DNA from: a candidate division WWE3 bacterium
GTDB lineage: Bacteria > Patescibacteriota > WWE3 > UBA101185 > UBA10185
DNA: 64,000 nucleotides
Assembly (NCBI GenBank): GCA_003599255.1
Contig: QZJF01000016.1
Span: 863 to 64,862 of the forward strand
Direction: 5' to 3'
Position numbers and translations under genes: made by a program. Below, in pieces: positions 8,158-62,631 of the stretch. The first letter of the stretch is position 1; each line of letters opens with the position of its first letter. Under the pieces are notes generated by a model that was not told the DNA's origin, made no database searches, and saw nothing but the letters and a program-made list of their open reading frames with translations.

Positions 8158-9201
8158 ATGCTTTCCACGAAGGCTAACGAAAACCCCAACTCACAAGATG
8201 AAATAAATGAAAAAGTGGCCCCGGAGGGGGATGACGAAAAACAAAAACCTGATGAAGAATTGGGTTCGGGTACCGGAGAAGTCGTCAATAAGAATGAAGA
8301 AGAGGAAAAAAATAAGCTGGAGGAACTTAGAAAGGCCTGGTTTAATTCCAGTTTGCGCTCCACTTTGGCAACCGTTGGTGCAGGAGGTGCCTTTGTCGCC
8401 CGCGAGGCTTTGTCCAGTTATGCATCTGTAATTTCAAATCGTGAATATTGGGCTAGATATTATTATTTTGCACAAGATATATTTCAGAAGGGATTGCCTG
8501 CCACTTCTATAGAGGTTCAAAACCTGCTTCAGAATGCAAATACGGGTGAAGTGGCATTATTGGTAACAGGTGTAGCTTTAGCAGGATACGCTGTGTACGA
8601 AACTTACAAATCGTACAAGGCTGAAAAGGAATTCAAAAAGGAAAAACTGGTTCAACTGCATGAATTTTCAGATACTGCAGAAATGACTACTGAAGAGCTT
8701 GAGATGGTACAAGCAAAAGAAGATTGGTACGGCAATAGAATTAAGGCTGTCGTTGCCGCGGGATCCTCAGGTGTTGCTCTCATAGCAAAAAAATATCTTT
8801 CAGAAATTGCCCACAGCACTTGGTGGCAAGCAGAAAAGCAAGCAAGACTATTAGATGACTTAAGATACCACGACAAAGAACTTCCCGCAGAGGTTATTCA
8901 AAAATTTTATGCACTTTGTGAAAAAGTACAATATGCGGAAACCGGTGCTGCTGCAGCATTAGCTGCCGCAGTAGCGTTGGCAGGCTATTCTGCTTATAGT
9001 GCTTATAGGGCATTTAAAGCAAAAGAGGAGCTTAACCCCAAACCGGAACAGGAACCAGAACCTGAACCGAAACCGGAAACGAAACCAAAATCTGAACCAA
9101 AATCGGAACTTGTAGCACTAAGTTGTCCCGCTTGCGGCGCACCAGTGTCGTCTGCTGATAGCGTATGCCCTTATTGCCAGTCTGGTCTTGAAAGAAAGTA
9201 A
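8158..9201 (+). CDS. hypothetical Ala-rich protein with Pro/Glu/Lys linker and C-terminal CxxC...CxxC zinc ribbon
   Basis: ATG start. PEPEPKPETKPKSEPKSE repeat linker. C-terminal CPACGAPVSSADSVCPYC. Confidence 0.5.
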   Translation: MLSTKANENPNSQDEINEKVAPEGDDEKQKPDEELGSGTGEVVNKNEEEEKNKLEELRKAWFNSSLRSTLATVGAGGAFVAREALSSYASVISNREYWARYYYFAQDIFQKGLPATSIEVQNLLQNANTGEVALLVTGVALAGYAVYETYKSYKAEKEFKKEKLVQLHEFSDTAEMTTEELEMVQAKEDWYGNRIKAVVAAGSSGVALIAKKYLSEIAHSTWWQAEKQARLLDDLRYHDKELPAEVIQKFYALCEKVQYAETGAAAALAAAVALAGYSAYSAYRAFKAKEELNPKPEQEPEPEPKPETKPKSEPKSELVALSCPACGAPVSSADSVCPYCQSGLERK

Positions 9202-15464: not shown

Positions 15465-16055
15465 ATGATTTCAAAAATAGTACATCCGGAAGAAAATACC
15501 AAATTTCAAGTTACTGAAAACACCCAGTTTATAGCATTATTTAATGATTACCCTGACGGGAAAGAGTGTAAGATCGAACTGGAATTTAATACAGAGGGCA
15601 TCTCGGCGGAAATCATATGCCTTTATAGATTACCAGAGAGAAAATCTCTTCATTTAACAACTGTTGCTAAACATATTGTTCCTCATACTTCCTGCAATAC
15701 GGTTGTGCGCGGTGTACTGGAATCTAAAACTGATTCTTACTACATTGGAAAGATACTGATAAAAAAGCAGGCACAGCAAACATCTTCGTACCTGAGTGAC
15801 CGGGTTTTGGTTCTAGGTGATGGTGTTAAGAACAATTCAGAGCCTATTTTGGAGATTGAGGCCGATGATGTCAGCGCATCTCATGGTGCCTCCACGGGCA
15901 GAATAAATCCTGATGAAATTTATTATCTTCAATCAAGAGGTTTGAACGAAAAAGAGTCGTCCGACCTAATAGTAGAAGGGTTTTTTAATAAAGTTTTAGA
16001 AACCATCGCCGATCCGGAAGTTAGGGAACTTGCGGCAAATGCGGTAAAATCCTAA
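15465..16055 (+). CDS. sufD: SufD-like protein (short form)
   Basis: Conserved SufB/SufD C-terminal region (HGASTGRINPDEIYYLQSRGL). ATG at 15465 lies 1 nt after the sufB stop and has a purine-rich SD. The ORF track's 15432 start overlaps sufB. Confidence 0.6.
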   Translation: MISKIVHPEENTKFQVTENTQFIALFNDYPDGKECKIELEFNTEGISAEIICLYRLPERKSLHLTTVAKHIVPHTSCNTVVRGVLESKTDSYYIGKILIKKQAQQTSSYLSDRVLVLGDGVKNNSEPILEIEADDVSASHGASTGRINPDEIYYLQSRGLNEKESSDLIVEGFFNKVLETIADPEVRELAANAVKS

Positions 16056-19271: not shown

Positions 19272-19347
19272 GGGCGATTAGCTCAATTGGCAGAGCGCTC
19301 GTCTTATACACGAGTGGTTCCTGGTTCGATCCCAGGATCGCCCACCA
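19272..19347 (+). tRNA. tRNA-Ile with UAU anticodon (reads AUA), CCA encoded
   Basis: Cloverleaf with standard numbering: acceptor GGGCGAT/ATCGCCC identical to tRNA-Ile(GAU) at 56613-56689. Anticodon loop CTTATAC gives anticodon TAT. Confidence 0.75.
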
Positions 19348-19935
19348 TTAAAAGATTATGTCTGTGTTTGGAAGCCTTGTTCTCAACTCACTAACCATAT
19401 TTCCATCTAATGGATTTCCCTTAATGTTTAATTCATCCAGATGCGTAAGATTGTAAATCTCATTTGGAAGAGCAGTAATCTGATTGCCCGAGAAATCAAT
19501 CTTCTCGATTTTAGGCAGCTGTCCCACCTCGGCGGGAATTCCCGTCAGCTCGTTGTCATGTACATCCAGGATTCTCAGGTCGGTAAACATTCTAATTTCT
19601 CCCGGTAATGCCCTCAGTCCGCTGTCTACGATGTTCAACTCCCGAAGGTTTTTAAGCTTTCCGATTTCGGATGGAAGCGACTCGATGCTGTTCCCTGACA
19701 GGTCAAGTTTGGTTAAACCTGTGTCATTCAATATTTCCTTCGGAAAACTATTCAATCCCTTGTTTCTGTAATCTCCTGACCCTCCGGACTCAGTGACTTT
19801 TTCCACAACCTTATCTACTGTATCTACTGTGGCGATATTGGTTAATGTGTCTTCATATTTAATTTTTTGGTAGAAATATACTGAGAAACCTACTATCGCA
19901 CCTATTAAAATGTATGGAAGCAGGTTTTTGTTCAT
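19348..19935 (-). CDS. leucine-rich repeat (LRR) protein with N-terminal membrane anchor
   Basis: Repeats LxxLxLxxNxL (LTKLDLSGNSIESLP, LRELNIVDSGLRALP, LRILDVHDNELTGIP, IEKIDFSGNQITALP, LDELNIKGNPL). N-terminal hydrophobic segment. Confidence 0.7.
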   Translation of the reverse strand: MNKNLLPYILIGAIVGFSVYFYQKIKYEDTLTNIATVDTVDKVVEKVTESGGSGDYRNKGLNSFPKEILNDTGLTKLDLSGNSIESLPSEIGKLKNLRELNIVDSGLRALPGEIRMFTDLRILDVHDNELTGIPAEVGQLPKIEKIDFSGNQITALPNEIYNLTHLDELNIKGNPLDGNMVSELRTRLPNTDIIF

Positions 19936-21115: not shown

Positions 21116-21991
21116 TTAAAGAATTCCTAGGTCTGTCTTTTCTTCTTCGGTGTCACGCTCGATATACTGCAGATATCTTTCTGTGGTGGATATTCTTTTG
21201 TGTCCGGCTATTTTTGATATATGAATTATGCTCACACCGGTTGCCAGGTGATGCGCCACAAAAGTATGTCTAAGATCATTTACTTTTGCATTTTCTACCC
21301 CGGCAAGTTTGAAATACCTATTAATCGTTGAACGGATATTTCTCACAAGCAGCGGTTTGCCTGTTTTTGTAATGAATAAGTGTTTAGCGTTTTCTAATTT
21401 TGGTCTGTCCTCGTTTATGTACTCTTTGATAGCTTCAACAACAGCCTTGTTTAGAGGAACAGTTCTCGCGTCTTTGTTATTTTTCTTGGGTACAAACAAA
21501 GATCCGGACTCTTCGTCCAGACTTATGTCTTCCATCCGGATTTCAGCAAGCTCGGAAATAGTAATTCCCGTCTGCAATAAGACCTCTATCATAGCGTAAC
21601 TTCTTAAATCATCTTTTGCAGCATCTCTAAGTGCCCGATACTCAAGTTTAGAGAGTATTCTGGGGGCCTTGATGTCCACTTTTGGATGTTTAAGTAAATC
21701 GGCAATATTATCTTTAATATGGCCTTCTTTGTGAAGAAACTTAAAGAAAGTCTTTGTGGCATTTGTTTTTCTGGAAATTGATTTAGGGGTGTATTCTTCT
21801 TCGGAGAGTTTAGACATAAAGCCCTCCAAATGAACCAATTCAACTTCAGTTACAATATTTACACCTGATTTTGAAAGGTGTTCCATTAACTGTTCAATAT
21901 CTTTACTGTAGGCTATAAGGGTAGAACTTGACTTTCCCTCACTCTCAAGGGCCTCAATAAACTTTTTATGAGCTAAATCTAATTTAATCAT
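21116..21991 (-). CDS. tyrosine site-specific recombinase (XerC/XerD/integrase family)
   Basis: C-terminal catalytic region HDLRHTFVAHHL ... GHKRISTTERYL (R..HxxR..Y). 291 aa, XerD-like size. Confidence 0.8.
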   Translation of the reverse strand: MIKLDLAHKKFIEALESEGKSSSTLIAYSKDIEQLMEHLSKSGVNIVTEVELVHLEGFMSKLSEEEYTPKSISRKTNATKTFFKFLHKEGHIKDNIADLLKHPKVDIKAPRILSKLEYRALRDAAKDDLRSYAMIEVLLQTGITISELAEIRMEDISLDEESGSLFVPKKNNKDARTVPLNKAVVEAIKEYINEDRPKLENAKHLFITKTGKPLLVRNIRSTINRYFKLAGVENAKVNDLRHTFVAHHLATGVSIIHISKIAGHKRISTTERYLQYIERDTEEEKTDLGIL

Positions 21992-53338: not shown

Positions 53339-53554
53339 AGGTTGTTATAATGAACAGGAATAACTGTTGACTTAATGATATTAAGTTGCTATCTTCCAGT
53401 TTGCTAGCAAATATATGCTAGAATTATTCGTTGTTTTGTTAATTCCGAAGAGAACTTTGAAATATACATAGATAGAGCAATCCTTGAACAATTAGTTTGA
53501 GTACCTTAAGTAACTTTGAAATTTTCGAGGTTCAAGAGGTAAGAAGAATATTTT

Positions 53555-55024
<1,470 letters not shown>

Positions 55025-55253
55025 CTAGGGAGAAAACACGTATCTTTGATTGATGGAATCTTGTGTTTGCTATACGCAAACAAAGGCCATTGAAATAGAA
55101 GATACAACATATATCCGATAGCTCTGAGGATATGTGTTTTAGGCTGTTATGTGTTGCCTCACAACAGCTGAGCAAGTTCGACAGTAAGCTTAAACTGTCA
55201 AAAGAAATATTCTTCTTGCCTTTTGGATCTTGAAATTTATATTGTTTGAAACT

Positions 55254-55622
55254 TTAGGACCTGGCTCTATCTCTGTATTCGTAACCAAGCATAATTAATT
55301 TTTGCTTCTGTTCATCATTTAAGTCTTTCCCGATTTCCTGCAGGAAGTCCTGCAACATTACTCTAATTGATTCTTCCAGATGTGTTTGGATTTCATCCTC
55401 TTTCCAGTATTTTTTAATAACCTGAGTTAATTCTTCAATATTGGCTGTTGGTGTAAAAATTTCATCAGAGCCTATTTTAGATTTAGTATCAGCCCCAAGT
55501 CTTAGAACAGCATTCCTGAATATCTTATCTGCAACATCTGTGGAAACTTCGTCTGCATTGTCAATTCCAATGCCGTTTAATAAATCAAACAAAAATTGTT
55601 TTAAAAGATTTTGATCATTCAT
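55254..55622 (-). CDS. hypothetical protein (antisense to rRNA orientation, in 16S-23S interval)
   Basis: 122-aa ORF whose start overlaps the upstream ORF stop (ATGA coupling). Confidence 0.35.
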   Translation of the reverse strand: MNDQNLLKQFLFDLLNGIGIDNADEVSTDVADKIFRNAVLRLGADTKSKIGSDEIFTPTANIEELTQVIKKYWKEDEIQTHLEESIRVMLQDFLQEIGKDLNDEQKQKLIMLGYEYRDRARS

Positions 55623-56035
55623 TACGATTCCTTTTCCTGTTGATTTTCAAAATGTTCTGCTGCTCTGCCGAAATATCTCGACATTCCATAGCCTACTGCG
55701 GCGCCGATGCTGCCAGAGATCACTCCGGCAGGGTTCCCGGTCACGGCTCCAATTGGAACTGTACCGGCTGACATGCTTCCCGTAACCAAAGTGCCTTTGC
55801 TTAGCGATTTAGCCAATTTTGCTCTTTCTTCATCTGTTTCTGCCCCTTTCTCAATATACTTTATTGCCATCCCTAATGCCGCTTCATCCATTCTTTCCAG
55901 CCAACCGCCTATAGTTTGCTTAATAGTTTCCATGTTACTAAGTTGTTCGGGTTGGGATATATCCGCAACACTTTCTGTTGCGTCTTCCGCCGAAAAATTC
56001 TCGTGTTCTGCGTCGTCTTTTAAAAACTCACTCAC
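55622..56035 (-). CDS. hypothetical protein with C-terminal glycine-zipper hydrophobic segment
   Basis: Acidic N-terminal half, then GTLVTGSMSAGTVPIGAVTGNPAGVISGSIGAAVGYG (GxxxG repeats). GTG start; start uncertain. Confidence 0.35.
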   Translation of the reverse strand: MSEFLKDDAEHENFSAEDATESVADISQPEQLSNMETIKQTIGGWLERMDEAALGMAIKYIEKGAETDEERAKLAKSLSKGTLVTGSMSAGTVPIGAVTGNPAGVISGSIGAAVGYGMSRYFGRAAEHFENQQEKES

Positions 56036-56109
56036 CTAATTATTATCAAACGGGCGGTAACTGAAGTCAACCGTTGTCGTGACTTGATTTAATGGTGTAA
56101 AATGCACCT

Positions 56110-56529
56110 ATGACAATAACTAATGGTAAAGAAAAAGGAATTGCAGTCGGAGTTGTCAAGAATCCTGCAGGAAAAGTGTTGATAATGGATAGGATAAGAA
56201 AAGAAACCGGTGCTGACGGAAGCAAGCTTACCTGGGTCTTTCCAGGGGGAAAGCTTGACGGTTCCGAAACGTTTGAAGACGCAGTTGTCCGCGAAATTTT
56301 GCTGGAAACAGGGTTTAAGGTAAAAGTTAACAAACTTATCTCCGAAAGAGTTCATCCGCAATTTGAGGTCCCGATCAAATACTTTGCCTGCGAATTAGCC
56401 GAATTTCGGACAAGGCCCATACAGGAAATTCACGAAGTATCAACAATAAGATGGGTAGATGTCTCAGAGCTACGCGATTACTTTACTACGGATATTGATC
56501 CCAACGTCGCGAAGTTTTTAAAGATTTAG
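56110..56529 (+). CDS. NUDIX hydrolase
   Basis: Nudix box GGKLDGSETFEDAVVREILLETG (Gx5Ex7REUxEExGU). Confidence 0.75.
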   Translation: MTITNGKEKGIAVGVVKNPAGKVLIMDRIRKETGADGSKLTWVFPGGKLDGSETFEDAVVREILLETGFKVKVNKLISERVHPQFEVPIKYFACELAEFRTRPIQEIHEVSTIRWVDVSELRDYFTTDIDPNVAKFLKI

Positions 56530-56541
56530 CCTAAATGTTCT

Positions 56542-56564
56542 TGGTGGGCGATCGTGGACTCGAA
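56542..56564. repeat. 23-nt direct repeat identical to the 3' end (T-loop to CCA) of the adjacent tRNA-Ile(GAU); att-site-like duplication
   Basis: tggtgggcgatcgtggactcgaa occurs at 56542-56564 and again at 56613-56635 (the tRNA 3' end on the minus strand). The copies are 48 nt apart. Confidence 0.6.
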
Positions 56565-56612
56565 GACGCTCGCTTCGTTCGCTTGGTTCTCGTTGAGTAG
56601 ACCAAAAGTATA

Positions 56613-56689
56613 TGGTGGGCGATCGTGGACTCGAACCACGGACCTTTCCCTTATCAGAGGAATGCTCTAACCACCTGAGCTAATCGCCC
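56613..56689 (-). tRNA. tRNA-Ile (anticodon GAU), CCA encoded, antisense to the rRNA genes
   Basis: Cloverleaf: GGGCGAT acceptor, anticodon loop CTGATAA, T-loop TTCGAGT. Confidence 0.85.
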
Positions 56690-56765
56690 TAGAAACAGAT
56701 GAATTCTACCATGTGATTTCTCCGGAAGTCTACGCTAGATCAATATATTATGATAACATTTTGGT

Positions 56766-57821
56766 ATGTACAAGCTTTTTGCTTTACTTTTTTTCTCTCT
56801 ACCTCCACTGTTACTATTTGCCATTCTGCTTAGAGTGGACGACAATCTTGGTTTTGGTCTGACAATATATCTGTTTTTGGCAATTCTGCTCCTTTATGTG
56901 ATATTTTTTGTTCTGGTCATTTTTCGCAGTATGTTTCAGATGAAAAAGGAACTCGCCGTAAGCCGTTTCATGAAGCTTCTGTCTGATGAGTTTCACATTG
57001 TATCTAAAAAATACTCTTTTTTTGTCAATTCCTTGTTGTTTTCCTGGTTGGTTGTTTTGGTTTTTATCATGTTTTACACAGTGAGTTTTATGTTTGCGCA
57101 ATATGTGGGAAAGCATTATGGAGATGAGATTAGAAATTTCCTGAAACAGCCTACGGTTAGCACATCGGACTTGTTGAATACAACTGAGGAGATGAAAGAT
57201 GAGTTGCGGGACCTCAAAACAAAGTTTTACGAACAAAATCAGTTAGATTTTTTTTCCAATAATTCTAGTACTTACTCTGAGGAGGAGGCACCTTACATTG
57301 TATTCTTAGATTTCAGCTTCCGCGAGGATTCCTCACCGGGGTTCAAGAGTTATTTTCTGTACTCTGTAAACATCTGTGCCGACGATGATCCGGAAAGTAT
57401 TGGGGTAGAGAGATGTTTGGATATCAGAGGTCCCATGGATTCTGAACTAAAGTTTAAATTCGCAAAGGAAGAAACTGTGTCGAATATTAATTTACGGGAG
57501 ATTTATGCCGCGGATTTTAACCAGCCATTCTTTGTACTCGAAATTGAAACAAATCTTAGGGATGCAGCGGTGCTGGTATATCCTGTCGATACTGATGATC
57601 TAAGCTACTCATACATTCCAAATACCAGTATCAACTCCGAGGCGAAGTTCGCAACATATGTGCAGGTCAATCAAATACAGAACGGTATTGTTTTTCTCGA
57701 ACGTATCAGGGACTTAGTAAACGGAGTAGTTGATGATACCGGAAAAGATCTGCATGTCACTGTTTTTAAAGAGAATGGTATTGTGAACTACCAGTATTCT
57801 CCGGTTAACGTCCAGCCCTAA
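56766..57821 (+). CDS. hypothetical membrane protein
   Basis: 351 aa. Four N-terminal TM segments followed by a soluble domain. Confidence 0.45.
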   Translation: MYKLFALLFFSLPPLLLFAILLRVDDNLGFGLTIYLFLAILLLYVIFFVLVIFRSMFQMKKELAVSRFMKLLSDEFHIVSKKYSFFVNSLLFSWLVVLVFIMFYTVSFMFAQYVGKHYGDEIRNFLKQPTVSTSDLLNTTEEMKDELRDLKTKFYEQNQLDFFSNNSSTYSEEEAPYIVFLDFSFREDSSPGFKSYFLYSVNICADDDPESIGVERCLDIRGPMDSELKFKFAKEETVSNINLREIYAADFNQPFFVLEIETNLRDAAVLVYPVDTDDLSYSYIPNTSINSEAKFATYVQVNQIQNGIVFLERIRDLVNGVVDDTGKDLHVTVFKENGIVNYQYSPVNVQP

Positions 57822-57830
57822 TTTTAATTT

Positions 57831-58829
57831 ATGAAACAATACCCCAAAGTAGTAGTTATAGGCGGAGGAACAGGAACATATGCTGTTCTTTCGGGTTTAA
57901 AGAAATATCCGGTCCATTTATCTGCAATTGTTACCATGATGGATTCCGGAGGTTCGACCGGAAGATTAAGAGACCAATTAGGTGTGCTGCCTCCAGGAGA
58001 TTTGAGACAGTCATTGGTAGCGCTTTCAGAATCTACTGAAATATGGAGAAACCTGTTCGCATATAGGTTTGATAACGGTGATCTGGAGGGGCACAATTTT
58101 GGAAACATATTTTTGTCGTCACTTGAGATGATAACTGGTTCAAATGAACGCGCTATTCATTACGCTGCAAGACTATTGAAGACAAAAGGAAAGGTAATTC
58201 CCGTTACGTTAACAAAATCCACTCTATGTGCAAAATATTCTGACGGAACAATCCTTGAAGGGGAAAAGCTAATAGATTACGCGCCGGCACCCAGAGCGCG
58301 TATAAATTATGTTTATCTTTCCCCTAGAGCCGTAATAAATCCTAACGCCAGAAAAGCCATAGAAACAGCCGATTTCTTGATATTCGGACCGGGAGACCTG
58401 TATACAAGCATTATTCCTAATTTAATAGTGGACGACATGGATGATGCAATTAGAAAAAGTAAAGCGAATAAAATATTTTGTATAAATTTAATGACTAAGT
58501 TGGGCCAGACTGATGGATTTAAGGCCTCCGATTTTGTCACTGAGCTATATAAGTACCTGGGCGGGGCAATGGTAGATTCTCTGGTTGTAAACAATAAAGA
58601 ACCGGATAAGGAAGTGGTAGATTGGTACGCACGATCGGGGGACGCATTCCTGGTTGAAGACGATCTTGATTCAATTGGCGGGGACATAGAGGTTTTTAGG
58701 GGAGATTTGCTTAGTGATACGCGCTATGAACAGTCTTTGTCTGATAGGATCCAAAGGAGCTTAATCCGACACGATCCGGACAAACTGGCAAAAGTGCTAT
58801 CCGAAGTTATCCAGAAAATCTTAGGTTGA
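57831..58829 (+). CDS. YvcK/CofD-like (UPF0052, gluconeogenesis factor family) protein
   Basis: N-terminal VVVIGGGTGTYAVLSGLK and family-typical length. Confidence 0.7.
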   Translation: MKQYPKVVVIGGGTGTYAVLSGLKKYPVHLSAIVTMMDSGGSTGRLRDQLGVLPPGDLRQSLVALSESTEIWRNLFAYRFDNGDLEGHNFGNIFLSSLEMITGSNERAIHYAARLLKTKGKVIPVTLTKSTLCAKYSDGTILEGEKLIDYAPAPRARINYVYLSPRAVINPNARKAIETADFLIFGPGDLYTSIIPNLIVDDMDDAIRKSKANKIFCINLMTKLGQTDGFKASDFVTELYKYLGGAMVDSLVVNNKEPDKEVVDWYARSGDAFLVEDDLDSIGGDIEVFRGDLLSDTRYEQSLSDRIQRSLIRHDPDKLAKVLSEVIQKILG

Positions 58830-59088
58830 CATCACTTTATACCGGTGCTAGAGTATCAGGTACGGAATGGGTAGTTCAACTTCCATATGGACTTTCTTTG
58901 CGTTTTTATGCGCAGGAATCTTAAAAAGATTCTTCAGGAAGCTCTGAATATCTATGTTTTAAACAATTGAATGTGAATAGTTTTACTTGTTGATTAAGTG
59001 TGCTACATTAGTGAGACCTGCAGTATGTTAGGCCAATGAGTGCATTCTCGGTCCTGCCTACGCGGGCTTGTACAGTCCCGTAAGTTTA

Positions 59089-59164
59089 CGGGCCTGTAGC
59101 TTAGTTGGTAGAGCGCCGCATTTGCATTGCGGAGGTCACGGGTTCGAATCCCGTCGGGTCCACC
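59089..59164 (+). tRNA. tRNA-Ala (anticodon UGC), CCA encoded
   Basis: G3·U70 identity pair. Anticodon loop TTTGCAT. T-loop GGTTCGAATCC. Confidence 0.9.
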
Positions 59165-59254
59165 AGATTAGTAAGTGCCCTTTGAAAACTGAATAAAAGT
59201 ATCTGATTTCGAAAGAAGTCAGGATACGAAAACTCTAAATTTTATGACAACAAT

Positions 59255-62385
<3,131 letters not shown>

Positions 62386-62514
62386 TATGAAGTCATAGAG
62401 AAGAGTTTTTGTATTCGGCTTTAGCCGCTTTACGCGCTTGCGCGAAAGGGGCCGGAGGCCACTTTTATTCAGTTTTTAGAGGGTACGAACATTAAAAATA
62501 AGTTTGTGTTCAGC

Positions 62515-62631
<117 letters not shown>

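Follow-up and report, generated by a model that had tools for sequence, protein, structure and literature searches.

In a stretch of 64,000 nucleotides from a contig of an uncultured bacterium of candidate division WWE3, one of the CPR bacteria (hereafter the window, which denotes the whole stretch that was analysed), the last 23 nt of the tRNA-Ile(GAT) gene are present twice: once in the tRNA itself and once 48 nt downstream of it, co-oriented with the tRNA. A partial tRNA copy beside a tRNA gene is routinely taken for the boundary of an island or for a scar, and such copies serve in the automatic delimitation of mobile elements. The question raised by this locus is whether the displaced copy is such a scar, or whether it has been retained as a part of the tRNA transcription unit. 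The reading we prefer, with a probability of roughly 0.4, is that tRNA-Ile(GAT) was long ago duplicated in part, from the T-loop to CCA, and that the copy has become a fixed and constrained part of the 3' trailer in one WWE3 clade, where it would be co-transcribed with the tRNA and have a role at the RNA level.

The plus-strand sequence TGGTGGGCGATCGTGGACTCGAA was found exactly at positions 56542-56564 and 56613-56635, the only two copies in the window; none of 100 dinucleotide shuffles contained a match. In the sense of the tRNA the repeat reads TTCGAGTCCACGATCGCCCACCA, and it comprises the T-loop (TTCGAGT), the 3' strand of the T-stem (CCACG), the 3' acceptor strand (ATCGCCC), the discriminator A and CCA. 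Identity between the copies ends sharply at both edges. The base 5' of the T-loop is a G in the tRNA and a C in the duplicate, and the duplicate is without its 5' T-stem partner. In the 15 nt 3' of each copy 9 of 15 positions agree, in AT-rich sequence and without significance; extended to 38 nt in this way, the repeat is 84% identical between the copies. No part of the remainder of the tRNA is repeated. The exact duplication at this distance and its restriction to the 3' end, both part of the original prediction, were thus borne out. Elsewhere in the window, the 23-mer has a single near match, with 3 mismatches, where the tRNA-Ile(TAT) gene ends (19325-19347), and no partial copies of the window's other five tRNAs were found. 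The coordinates of the features are listed in Table 1.

Table 1. Features of the tRNA-Ile(GAT) locus, the tRNA-Ile(TAT) locus and the corresponding intervals in related contigs (positions are those of the window unless a contig is named)
Feature	Position	Strand	Evidence or remark
16S rRNA	53553-55024		split rRNA locus
NUDIX hydrolase gene, convergent	56110..56529	+	Pfam
Repeat copy 2, exact duplicate, T-loop to CCA	56542..56564	-	exact match; identical in L013 8241-8263
Possible hairpin CGAAG-loop-CUUCG	56561..56577	-	read from window/L013 alignment
Spacer, 48 nt (50 nt in L013)	56565..56612	-	window/L013 alignment
Spacer motif ACGAGAACCAAGCG	56580..56593	-	14/14 identical in window and L013; unique in window
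Repeat copy 1, last 23 nt of tRNA-Ile(GAT)	56613-56635	-	sequence
tRNA-Ile(GAT), encoded CCA	56613..56689	-	ARAGORN; Rfam tRNA 67.9 bits; sequence
Promoter-like site for tRNA-Ile(GAT), TAGACT-18 nt-TG-n-TAGAAT (TGgTAGAAT)	56703..56732	-	sequence scan
tRNA-Ile(TAT), anticodon UAU	19272..19347	+	3' end differs from the 23-mer at 3 positions
XerC/D-like tyrosine recombinase, 291 aa	21116-21991	-	sequence
NUDIX-to-tRNA/duplicate interval	window 56530-56541		no genes
NUDIX-to-tRNA/duplicate interval	L013 7258-8240		one gene
NUDIX-to-tRNA/duplicate interval	L014 3427-5745		four genes
NUDIX-to-tRNA/duplicate interval	L018 800-2932		three genes
NUDIX-to-tRNA/duplicate interval	L020 2843-3828		two genes

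The tRNA-Ile(GAT) gene is situated in a split rRNA locus (53553-62630), in which about 4 kb of protein genes and the inverted tRNA-Ile lie between the 16S and the tRNA-Ala/23S unit. Following the 16S, the block consists of two ORFs of 122 and 137 aa on the minus strand, the NUDIX gene, the inverted tRNA-Ile, a 351-aa ORF and a gene of the CofD/YvcK family (hereafter the CofD-family gene); tRNA-Ala, 23S and 5S follow downstream of the block. The stop codon of the NUDIX gene lies 12 nt from the duplicate. The tRNA-Ala/23S unit has a promoter-like site of its own (TTGACA-17-TAGAGT, 58826-58854), which is conserved in the related contig L013 described below. No relatives of the 351-aa protein were found in GTDB genomes. 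A 22-nt imperfect direct repeat (18/22; 55120-55141 and 58940-58961) brackets the inserted gene block, with one copy just after the 16S flank and the other just before tRNA-Ala. The 23S match (59257-62387) measures 3131 nt against a model of 2925 nt, and about 200 nt of it are insertions in the gene.

The original prediction would have fallen with a common dispersed repeat or with a second, degenerate tRNA gene, and both were ruled out. Besides the two copies in the window, the 23-mer was found in 11 GTDB genomes (scanned with one genome per species), as a single copy in each and always at the 3' end of tRNA-Ile(GAT). ARAGORN and Rfam find one tRNA only at the locus, and the spacer does not contain GGGCGAT, the 5' acceptor strand. 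Further copies would have delimited a larger island; no third copy was present in the window, L013 or another relative, L014, when up to 6 mismatches were allowed.

The JGI metagenome collection was scanned for copies of the 23-mer with a base other than G in front of them, so that those in an intact T-arm were passed over. A single contig matched, L013, which represents a different organism from a different metagenome and an independent assembly. Its 16S is 96.5% identical to that of the window (89.8% for L014 and 85.2% for L020). The layout in L013 is that of the window, with an inverted tRNA-Ile (8314-8390), a slightly longer spacer and an exact duplicate, and the differences between the two tRNA-Ile(GAT) genes are confined to the anticodon stem. 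In the alignment of the two trailers, the first 19 spacer nucleotides after the tRNA are identical at 9 positions, the 14-nt motif is fully conserved, the next stretch of the spacer is rich in indels, and the 6 nt preceding the duplicate (AGCGTC) as well as the 23 nt of the duplicate itself are identical throughout. Beyond the duplicate the two sequences cannot be aligned, and the neighbouring gene is a different one.

At the 4-fold degenerate sites of two genes shared by the window and L013, identity is 33-36%, which amounts to saturation. Since silent sites are saturated, the conserved blocks of the trailer cannot be neutral survivors: the chance of neutral survival of 23/23, 14/14 and 6/6 positions is negligible, and even an identity of 0.6 per site would give only 0.6^23, or ~8e-6, for the duplicate. 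The decay of the displaced fragment and its arms at the neutral rate, as expected of a non-functional scar, was not observed. A decaying scar would not survive in a layout that is conserved in a relative with saturated silent sites, and the claim that the short spacing points to the scar of an excised or deleted element therefore fails for any recent event. We consider it likely that the duplicate is under constraint and is not a recent scar.

A third lineage, L014, very probably has the duplicate as well, judging from the sequence on both sides of an assembly gap. In this contig the inverted tRNA is followed by a gap of 100 N that ends at the tRNA 3' end. Across the gap the sequence resumes with the 8 nt TGGTGGGC, with which a further copy begins. 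The tRNA-Ile of L014 carries the T-stem variant TCCATGATCGCCCACCA, and its CofD-family protein is 66% identical to that of the window. In contrast, the duplicate is missing from the more distant relatives L018 and L020, where the tRNA-Ile is inverted in the same way, likewise upstream of the CofD-family gene, and has other genes abutting its 3' end. The tRNA was therefore inverted before the duplication arose, and independently of it, which refutes the proposed link between the duplicate and the inverted orientation of the tRNA. Being absent from L018 and L020, the duplicate is also not essential to the tRNA. The comparison with relatives thus gave a divided result, with the duplicate in the window, in L013 and probably in L014, but not in L018 and L020. 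The duplicate seems to have been gained once and kept thereafter, although its presence and absence among these genomes agree with mobility no less than with one gain in a single clade. The sample behind this conservation consists of two complete examples and one inferred across an assembly gap; on these two to three genomes, sequence comparison identifies a clade-conserved orphan duplicate of a tRNA 3' end.

The NUDIX gene is present in L013, L014, L018 and L020, and is an ancestral neighbour, not cargo. The gene content between it and the 3' side of the tRNA-Ile or duplicate differs in the window and in every relative (Table 1), and no mobile-element domains were detected in the ORFs scanned in these intervals. 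Three short contigs, obtained with different assemblers, end at or inside tRNA-Ile(GAT) (L015 1-77, L021 1-43 and L034 1-40), which hints at strain heterogeneity or at breaks induced by the repeat.

Several features of the sequence bear on transcription of the duplicate. The predicted promoter of tRNA-Ile(GAT) lies about 14 nt upstream of the mature 5' end, and L013, L021 and L034 likewise have an extended -10 that follows the pattern TGnTAnAAT. No terminator-like sites were predicted in 55000-59300, including the stretch between this promoter and the duplicate. A plus-strand promoter within the conserved spacer motif was considered and did not pass the promoter scan. A conserved small ORF through the spacer was not found on either strand, as indels shift the frames between the window and L013. 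The stem of a possible hairpin was kept in L013 despite an indel in the loop, which measures 3 nt there versus 7 nt in the window; the 3' arm of this hairpin is made up of the C preceding the duplicate and the first 4 nt of the duplicate. The evidence for this hairpin is weak; it does not appear in the predicted minimum-energy fold, and there is no fold-energy signal. No stable or conserved RNA fold of the trailers was detected (fold z-scores of +0.3 and -0.4), the two-sequence consensus fold of the window and L013 trailers showed no covariation, and an Rfam search of 56480-56640 (E up to 10) returned no known RNA family, including RtT RNA.

According to the preferred reading, the spacer and duplicate would be transcribed as the trailer of tRNA-Ile(GAT), inside its predicted transcription unit. 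The additional 3' end of tRNA type, ACCA with A/U-rich sequence behind it, might then be handled by the same 3'-end machinery as the first, and the product could be a trailer RNA of ~71-73 nt or a processing or stability signal. The duplication itself may go back to a crossover by a T-loop-targeting tyrosine integrase, the insert of which was later lost or was tiny from the start; illegitimate local duplication is the alternative. The exact start of the repeat at the T-loop fits such a crossover, and the repeat may thus be of integrase-mediated origin.

The closest tested analogue, and the only system known to share this anatomy, is formed by the trailer repeats of E. coli tyrT/tyrV-rttR. E. 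coli K-12 has 6 exact copies of the 19 nt that end tRNA-Tyr, 3 of them within the 178-bp trailer repeats; the sRNA rttR, as annotated, begins 8 nt after tyrV and stops precisely at the CCA of one of these duplicates. As at the WWE3 locus, the 3' end of the tRNA, CCA included, recurs exactly downstream of the gene and co-oriented with it. The E. coli copies sit in the transcription unit of the tRNA, and rtT RNA is a processing product of the tyrT-tyrV operon (bioRxiv 10.1101/2024.07.17.603846); the WWE3 spacer and duplicate have the same layout, and their co-transcription is predicted. The differences are equally clear. E. coli has three units of 178 bp, whereas the WWE3 locus has one extra copy at 71-73 nt; the duplicate in RttR pairs with the upstream GGGGAAGGAU into a 10-bp acceptor-like helix, a partner that the WWE3 trailers lack; the WWE3 trailer has no sequence or Rfam similarity to RttR; and the E. 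coli locus has the small ORF tpr, to which no conserved ORF on either strand of the window and L013 is comparable. The likeness is one of analogous function, not of family membership. A further related system is 3'ETS-leuZ of E. coli, an sRNA from the 3' external transcribed spacer of a tRNA, which is freed from the trailer by tRNA-processing nucleases. The trailers of this type are not known to contain a copy of the tRNA 3' end, and the likeness to the proposed WWE3 trailer RNA is that of a functional RNA derived from a tRNA trailer. By analogy with the E. coli trailer repeats an RNA-level role of the spacer and duplicate is put forward tentatively, as somewhat less than an even chance.

The trailer of tRNA-Ile(GAT) has a counterpart at the second isoleucine tRNA. 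In the window, the stop codon of a convergent LRR gene abuts the CCA of tRNA-Ile(TAT). In the organism of the L013 type, 36 nt are found between tRNA-Ile(TAT) and the LRR gene, and 32 of these 36 are the trailer of tRNA-Ile(GAT) (L017 8595-8706). Thus the 32-nt trailer sequence, including the conserved motif, is 100% identical at both tRNA-Ile genes of this organism, which is not so in the window; short sequences therefore move between these loci. The copy at the tRNA-Ile(TAT) gene does not have the duplicated core, and it ends 4 nt before the stop codon.

The same locus accounts for the contig L016, the relative with the closest CofD-family protein (74% amino acid identity), in which a Phage_integrase ORF and an LRR gene adjoin the same tRNA. 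L016 and L013 show 100% identity that begins 32 nt downstream of the tRNA, and the LRR gene and Phage_integrase ORF lie beyond that point. These two genes are orthologues of those at 19348-19935 and 21116-21991 in the window, which adjoin tRNA-Ile(TAT), and in L017 (same organism as L016) the LRR gene is followed by the same 32 nt and then by tRNA-Ile(TAT). L016 was therefore rejected as an integrated element, as its genes belong to the tRNA-Ile(TAT) locus in the window and L017; to judge by its sequence, two loci that share a repeat of 44 nt were joined in it, either as a chimera or by recombination. The Xer-like protein of the window has threonine in place of the first catalytic arginine (TGITISEL versus TGLRVSEL in E. 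coli XerD), with the RH..., H and Y positions kept, and is 87% identical in the L013-type organism. The order DivIC, Xer, LRR, tRNA-Ile(TAT) is conserved, with an extra 356-aa ORF between Xer and LRR in the window.

The alternative that survives best, although we regard it as unlikely, is that the duplicate is a non-functional integrase scar: an element in a T-loop-to-CCA site would have been mostly deleted, leaving arms of 48-50 nt between attL and attR, and gene conversion from the adjacent tRNA would keep the copies identical. The footprint of a tyrosine integrase claimed in the original prediction stands as far as the extent of the repeat is concerned. In a survey of Klebsiella tDNAs, the att repeats of tRNA-targeting tyrosine integrases take in the 3' part of the tRNA gene and begin at the T-loop or at the anticodon loop (bioRxiv 10.1101/2020.11.02.365908). 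With its extent from the start of the T-loop to CCA, the WWE3 repeat corresponds to the T-loop class of tDNA att sites, a sublocation also given for tRNA-integrated islands in the paper on the Islander database (PMC4383910). As in att pairs, a direct repeat from T-loop to CCA has the intact tRNA on one side and the displaced fragment downstream and co-oriented, and a region of variable gene content adjoins. No two of the genomes compared have the same genes on the far side of the duplicate, which recalls tRNA-linked hot spots, and the three short metagenome contigs that end at or inside tRNA-Ile(GAT) may be counted on the same side. So may the 32 nt of trailer that one organism carries unchanged at both of its tRNA-Ile genes, a sign that sequence was transferred ectopically. 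Finally, the Thermus phage P23-77 (L036, NC_013197.1, ~15802-15846) contains an intergenic, unannotated 3' half of tRNA-Ile(GAT) that looks, from its sequence, like an attP site, so that such sites exist. This fragment is, like the WWE3 duplicate, a partial tRNA-Ile(GAT) ending in CCA outside a tRNA gene, and it matches the 23-mer at 22 of 23 positions; unlike the duplicate, it is part of a phage genome with a host from an unrelated phylum, and its extent, anticodon loop to CCA, corresponds to another sublocation. It shows only that 3' parts of tRNA-Ile serve as attP sites.

The remainder of the integrase footprint was not found. Att pairs have an integrase and cargo between the repeats, whereas the WWE3 copies are separated by just the spacer; no integrase or mobile-element domains were detected in ORFs near the site in the window or its relatives, and no integrase was seen other than the conserved chromosomal Xer-like gene. 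The 23-mer and the spacer and arm patterns were absent from IMG/VR. Twelve 16-mer matches in IMG/VR lay outside any tRNA-like context and were dismissed as chance. GenBank phages and PLSDB gave no significant source of the spacer or core, and no attP-like partner was found in IMG/VR and the JGI metagenome collection, neither of which is exhaustive. With no integrase, cargo, third copy or attP, the scar would in addition have to be of the same remnant size and with the same end points in two lineages, so that its deletion must predate their split. The displaced fragment and part of the spacer have been conserved across saturated divergence instead of decaying, and the direct repeats have escaped both decay and slippage deletion since the two lineages split. 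Direct repeats of 23 nt at a distance of 48 nt should be prone to slippage deletion, and their retention over a long span therefore argues for selection or strong homogenisation. Even a duplicate that has no function could stay identical through gene conversion from the tRNA, and the identical trailers at both tRNA-Ile genes make conversion a possible source of this identity. However, the 14-nt motif, which is fully conserved at saturated divergence, has no template, and homogenisation cannot explain its conservation.

A local duplication of the tRNA 3' end and trailer by slippage, unequal crossing-over or template switching, which was later retained, would account for the repeat without any integrase. 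Local duplication is the mechanism proposed for the 178-bp repeats of E. coli tyrT, where exact copies of a tRNA 3' end in trailer repeats provide a precedent. The 38-nt extended repeat, the templated insertion of 36 nt at the other tRNA-Ile gene of the L013-type organism and the gap of 100 N in L014 with the start of a repeat on both sides agree with such an origin. Against this, the left boundary falls exactly on the first base of the T-loop, which is expected for an integrase and would be chance for slippage, the spacer itself is unduplicated, and the agreement beyond the 23 nt is not significant in AT-rich sequence. On balance we consider this alternative, which concerns the origin of the repeat only, to be improbable.

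Slightly more improbable still is a non-autonomous mini integrative element, a unit of 71-73 bp (arms and core) that would be moved in trans by an integrase encoded elsewhere, with the 3' side of tRNA-Ile genes as its target; in that case the repeats would be perfect because each lineage had acquired its unit recently. The uneven distribution among the relatives could be explained in this way, the conserved motif could be an arm-type binding site, and the first 32 nt of the unit are present after tRNA-Ile(TAT) in the L013-type organism and not in the window. That copy, however, is without the duplicated core and stops short of the LRR stop codon, and no further copies of the unit were found. 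The only integrase seen is the chromosomal Xer-like gene, and no free junction was present in IMG/VR or the JGI metagenome collection. Moreover, recombination between sites ~71 bp apart is sterically difficult, which counts against an element of this size. An assembly artefact or a degenerate second tRNA gene, suggested by the metagenomic source of the assembly and by a 71-nt spacing close to the length of a tRNA, can practically be dismissed, as a second organism shows the same structure in an assembly of its own, modern assemblers should not be misled by a repeat of only 23 nt, neither a match to a tRNA model nor a 5' acceptor strand was found in the spacer, and the boundary between perfect identity and unrelated sequence is sharp.

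A bolder form of the constrained-trailer reading, which we think rather doubtful, is that the spacer and duplicate together are a selected module of the WWE3 clade, made up of a free-standing second tRNA 3' terminus and the 14-nt motif. A trailer RNA of this kind might mimic the 3' end of tRNA-Ile and act as a decoy or competitor for its readers, or it might serve as a processing or stability signal. Alternatively, the module might have been domesticated from a site of recombination; the second tRNA-Ile gene, which has received a copy of the trailer sequence, is two genes away from the conserved Xer-like recombinase without the first catalytic arginine.

The WWE3 copy of the tRNA 3' end has no element attached to it, and it has remained intact over a divergence that erased all neutral similarity. 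If it is instead a scar kept by conversion, the locus would allow the efficiency with which these reduced genomes homogenise very short repeats to be gauged. If the preferred reading is true in more genomes, some of the 'att scars' would be retained parts of tRNA transcription units. This class of retained tRNA trailers is so far represented mainly by the poorly understood tyrT-rttR locus of E. coli, and CPR bacteria, the RNA processing of which is largely unknown, would then offer a second, independent example.
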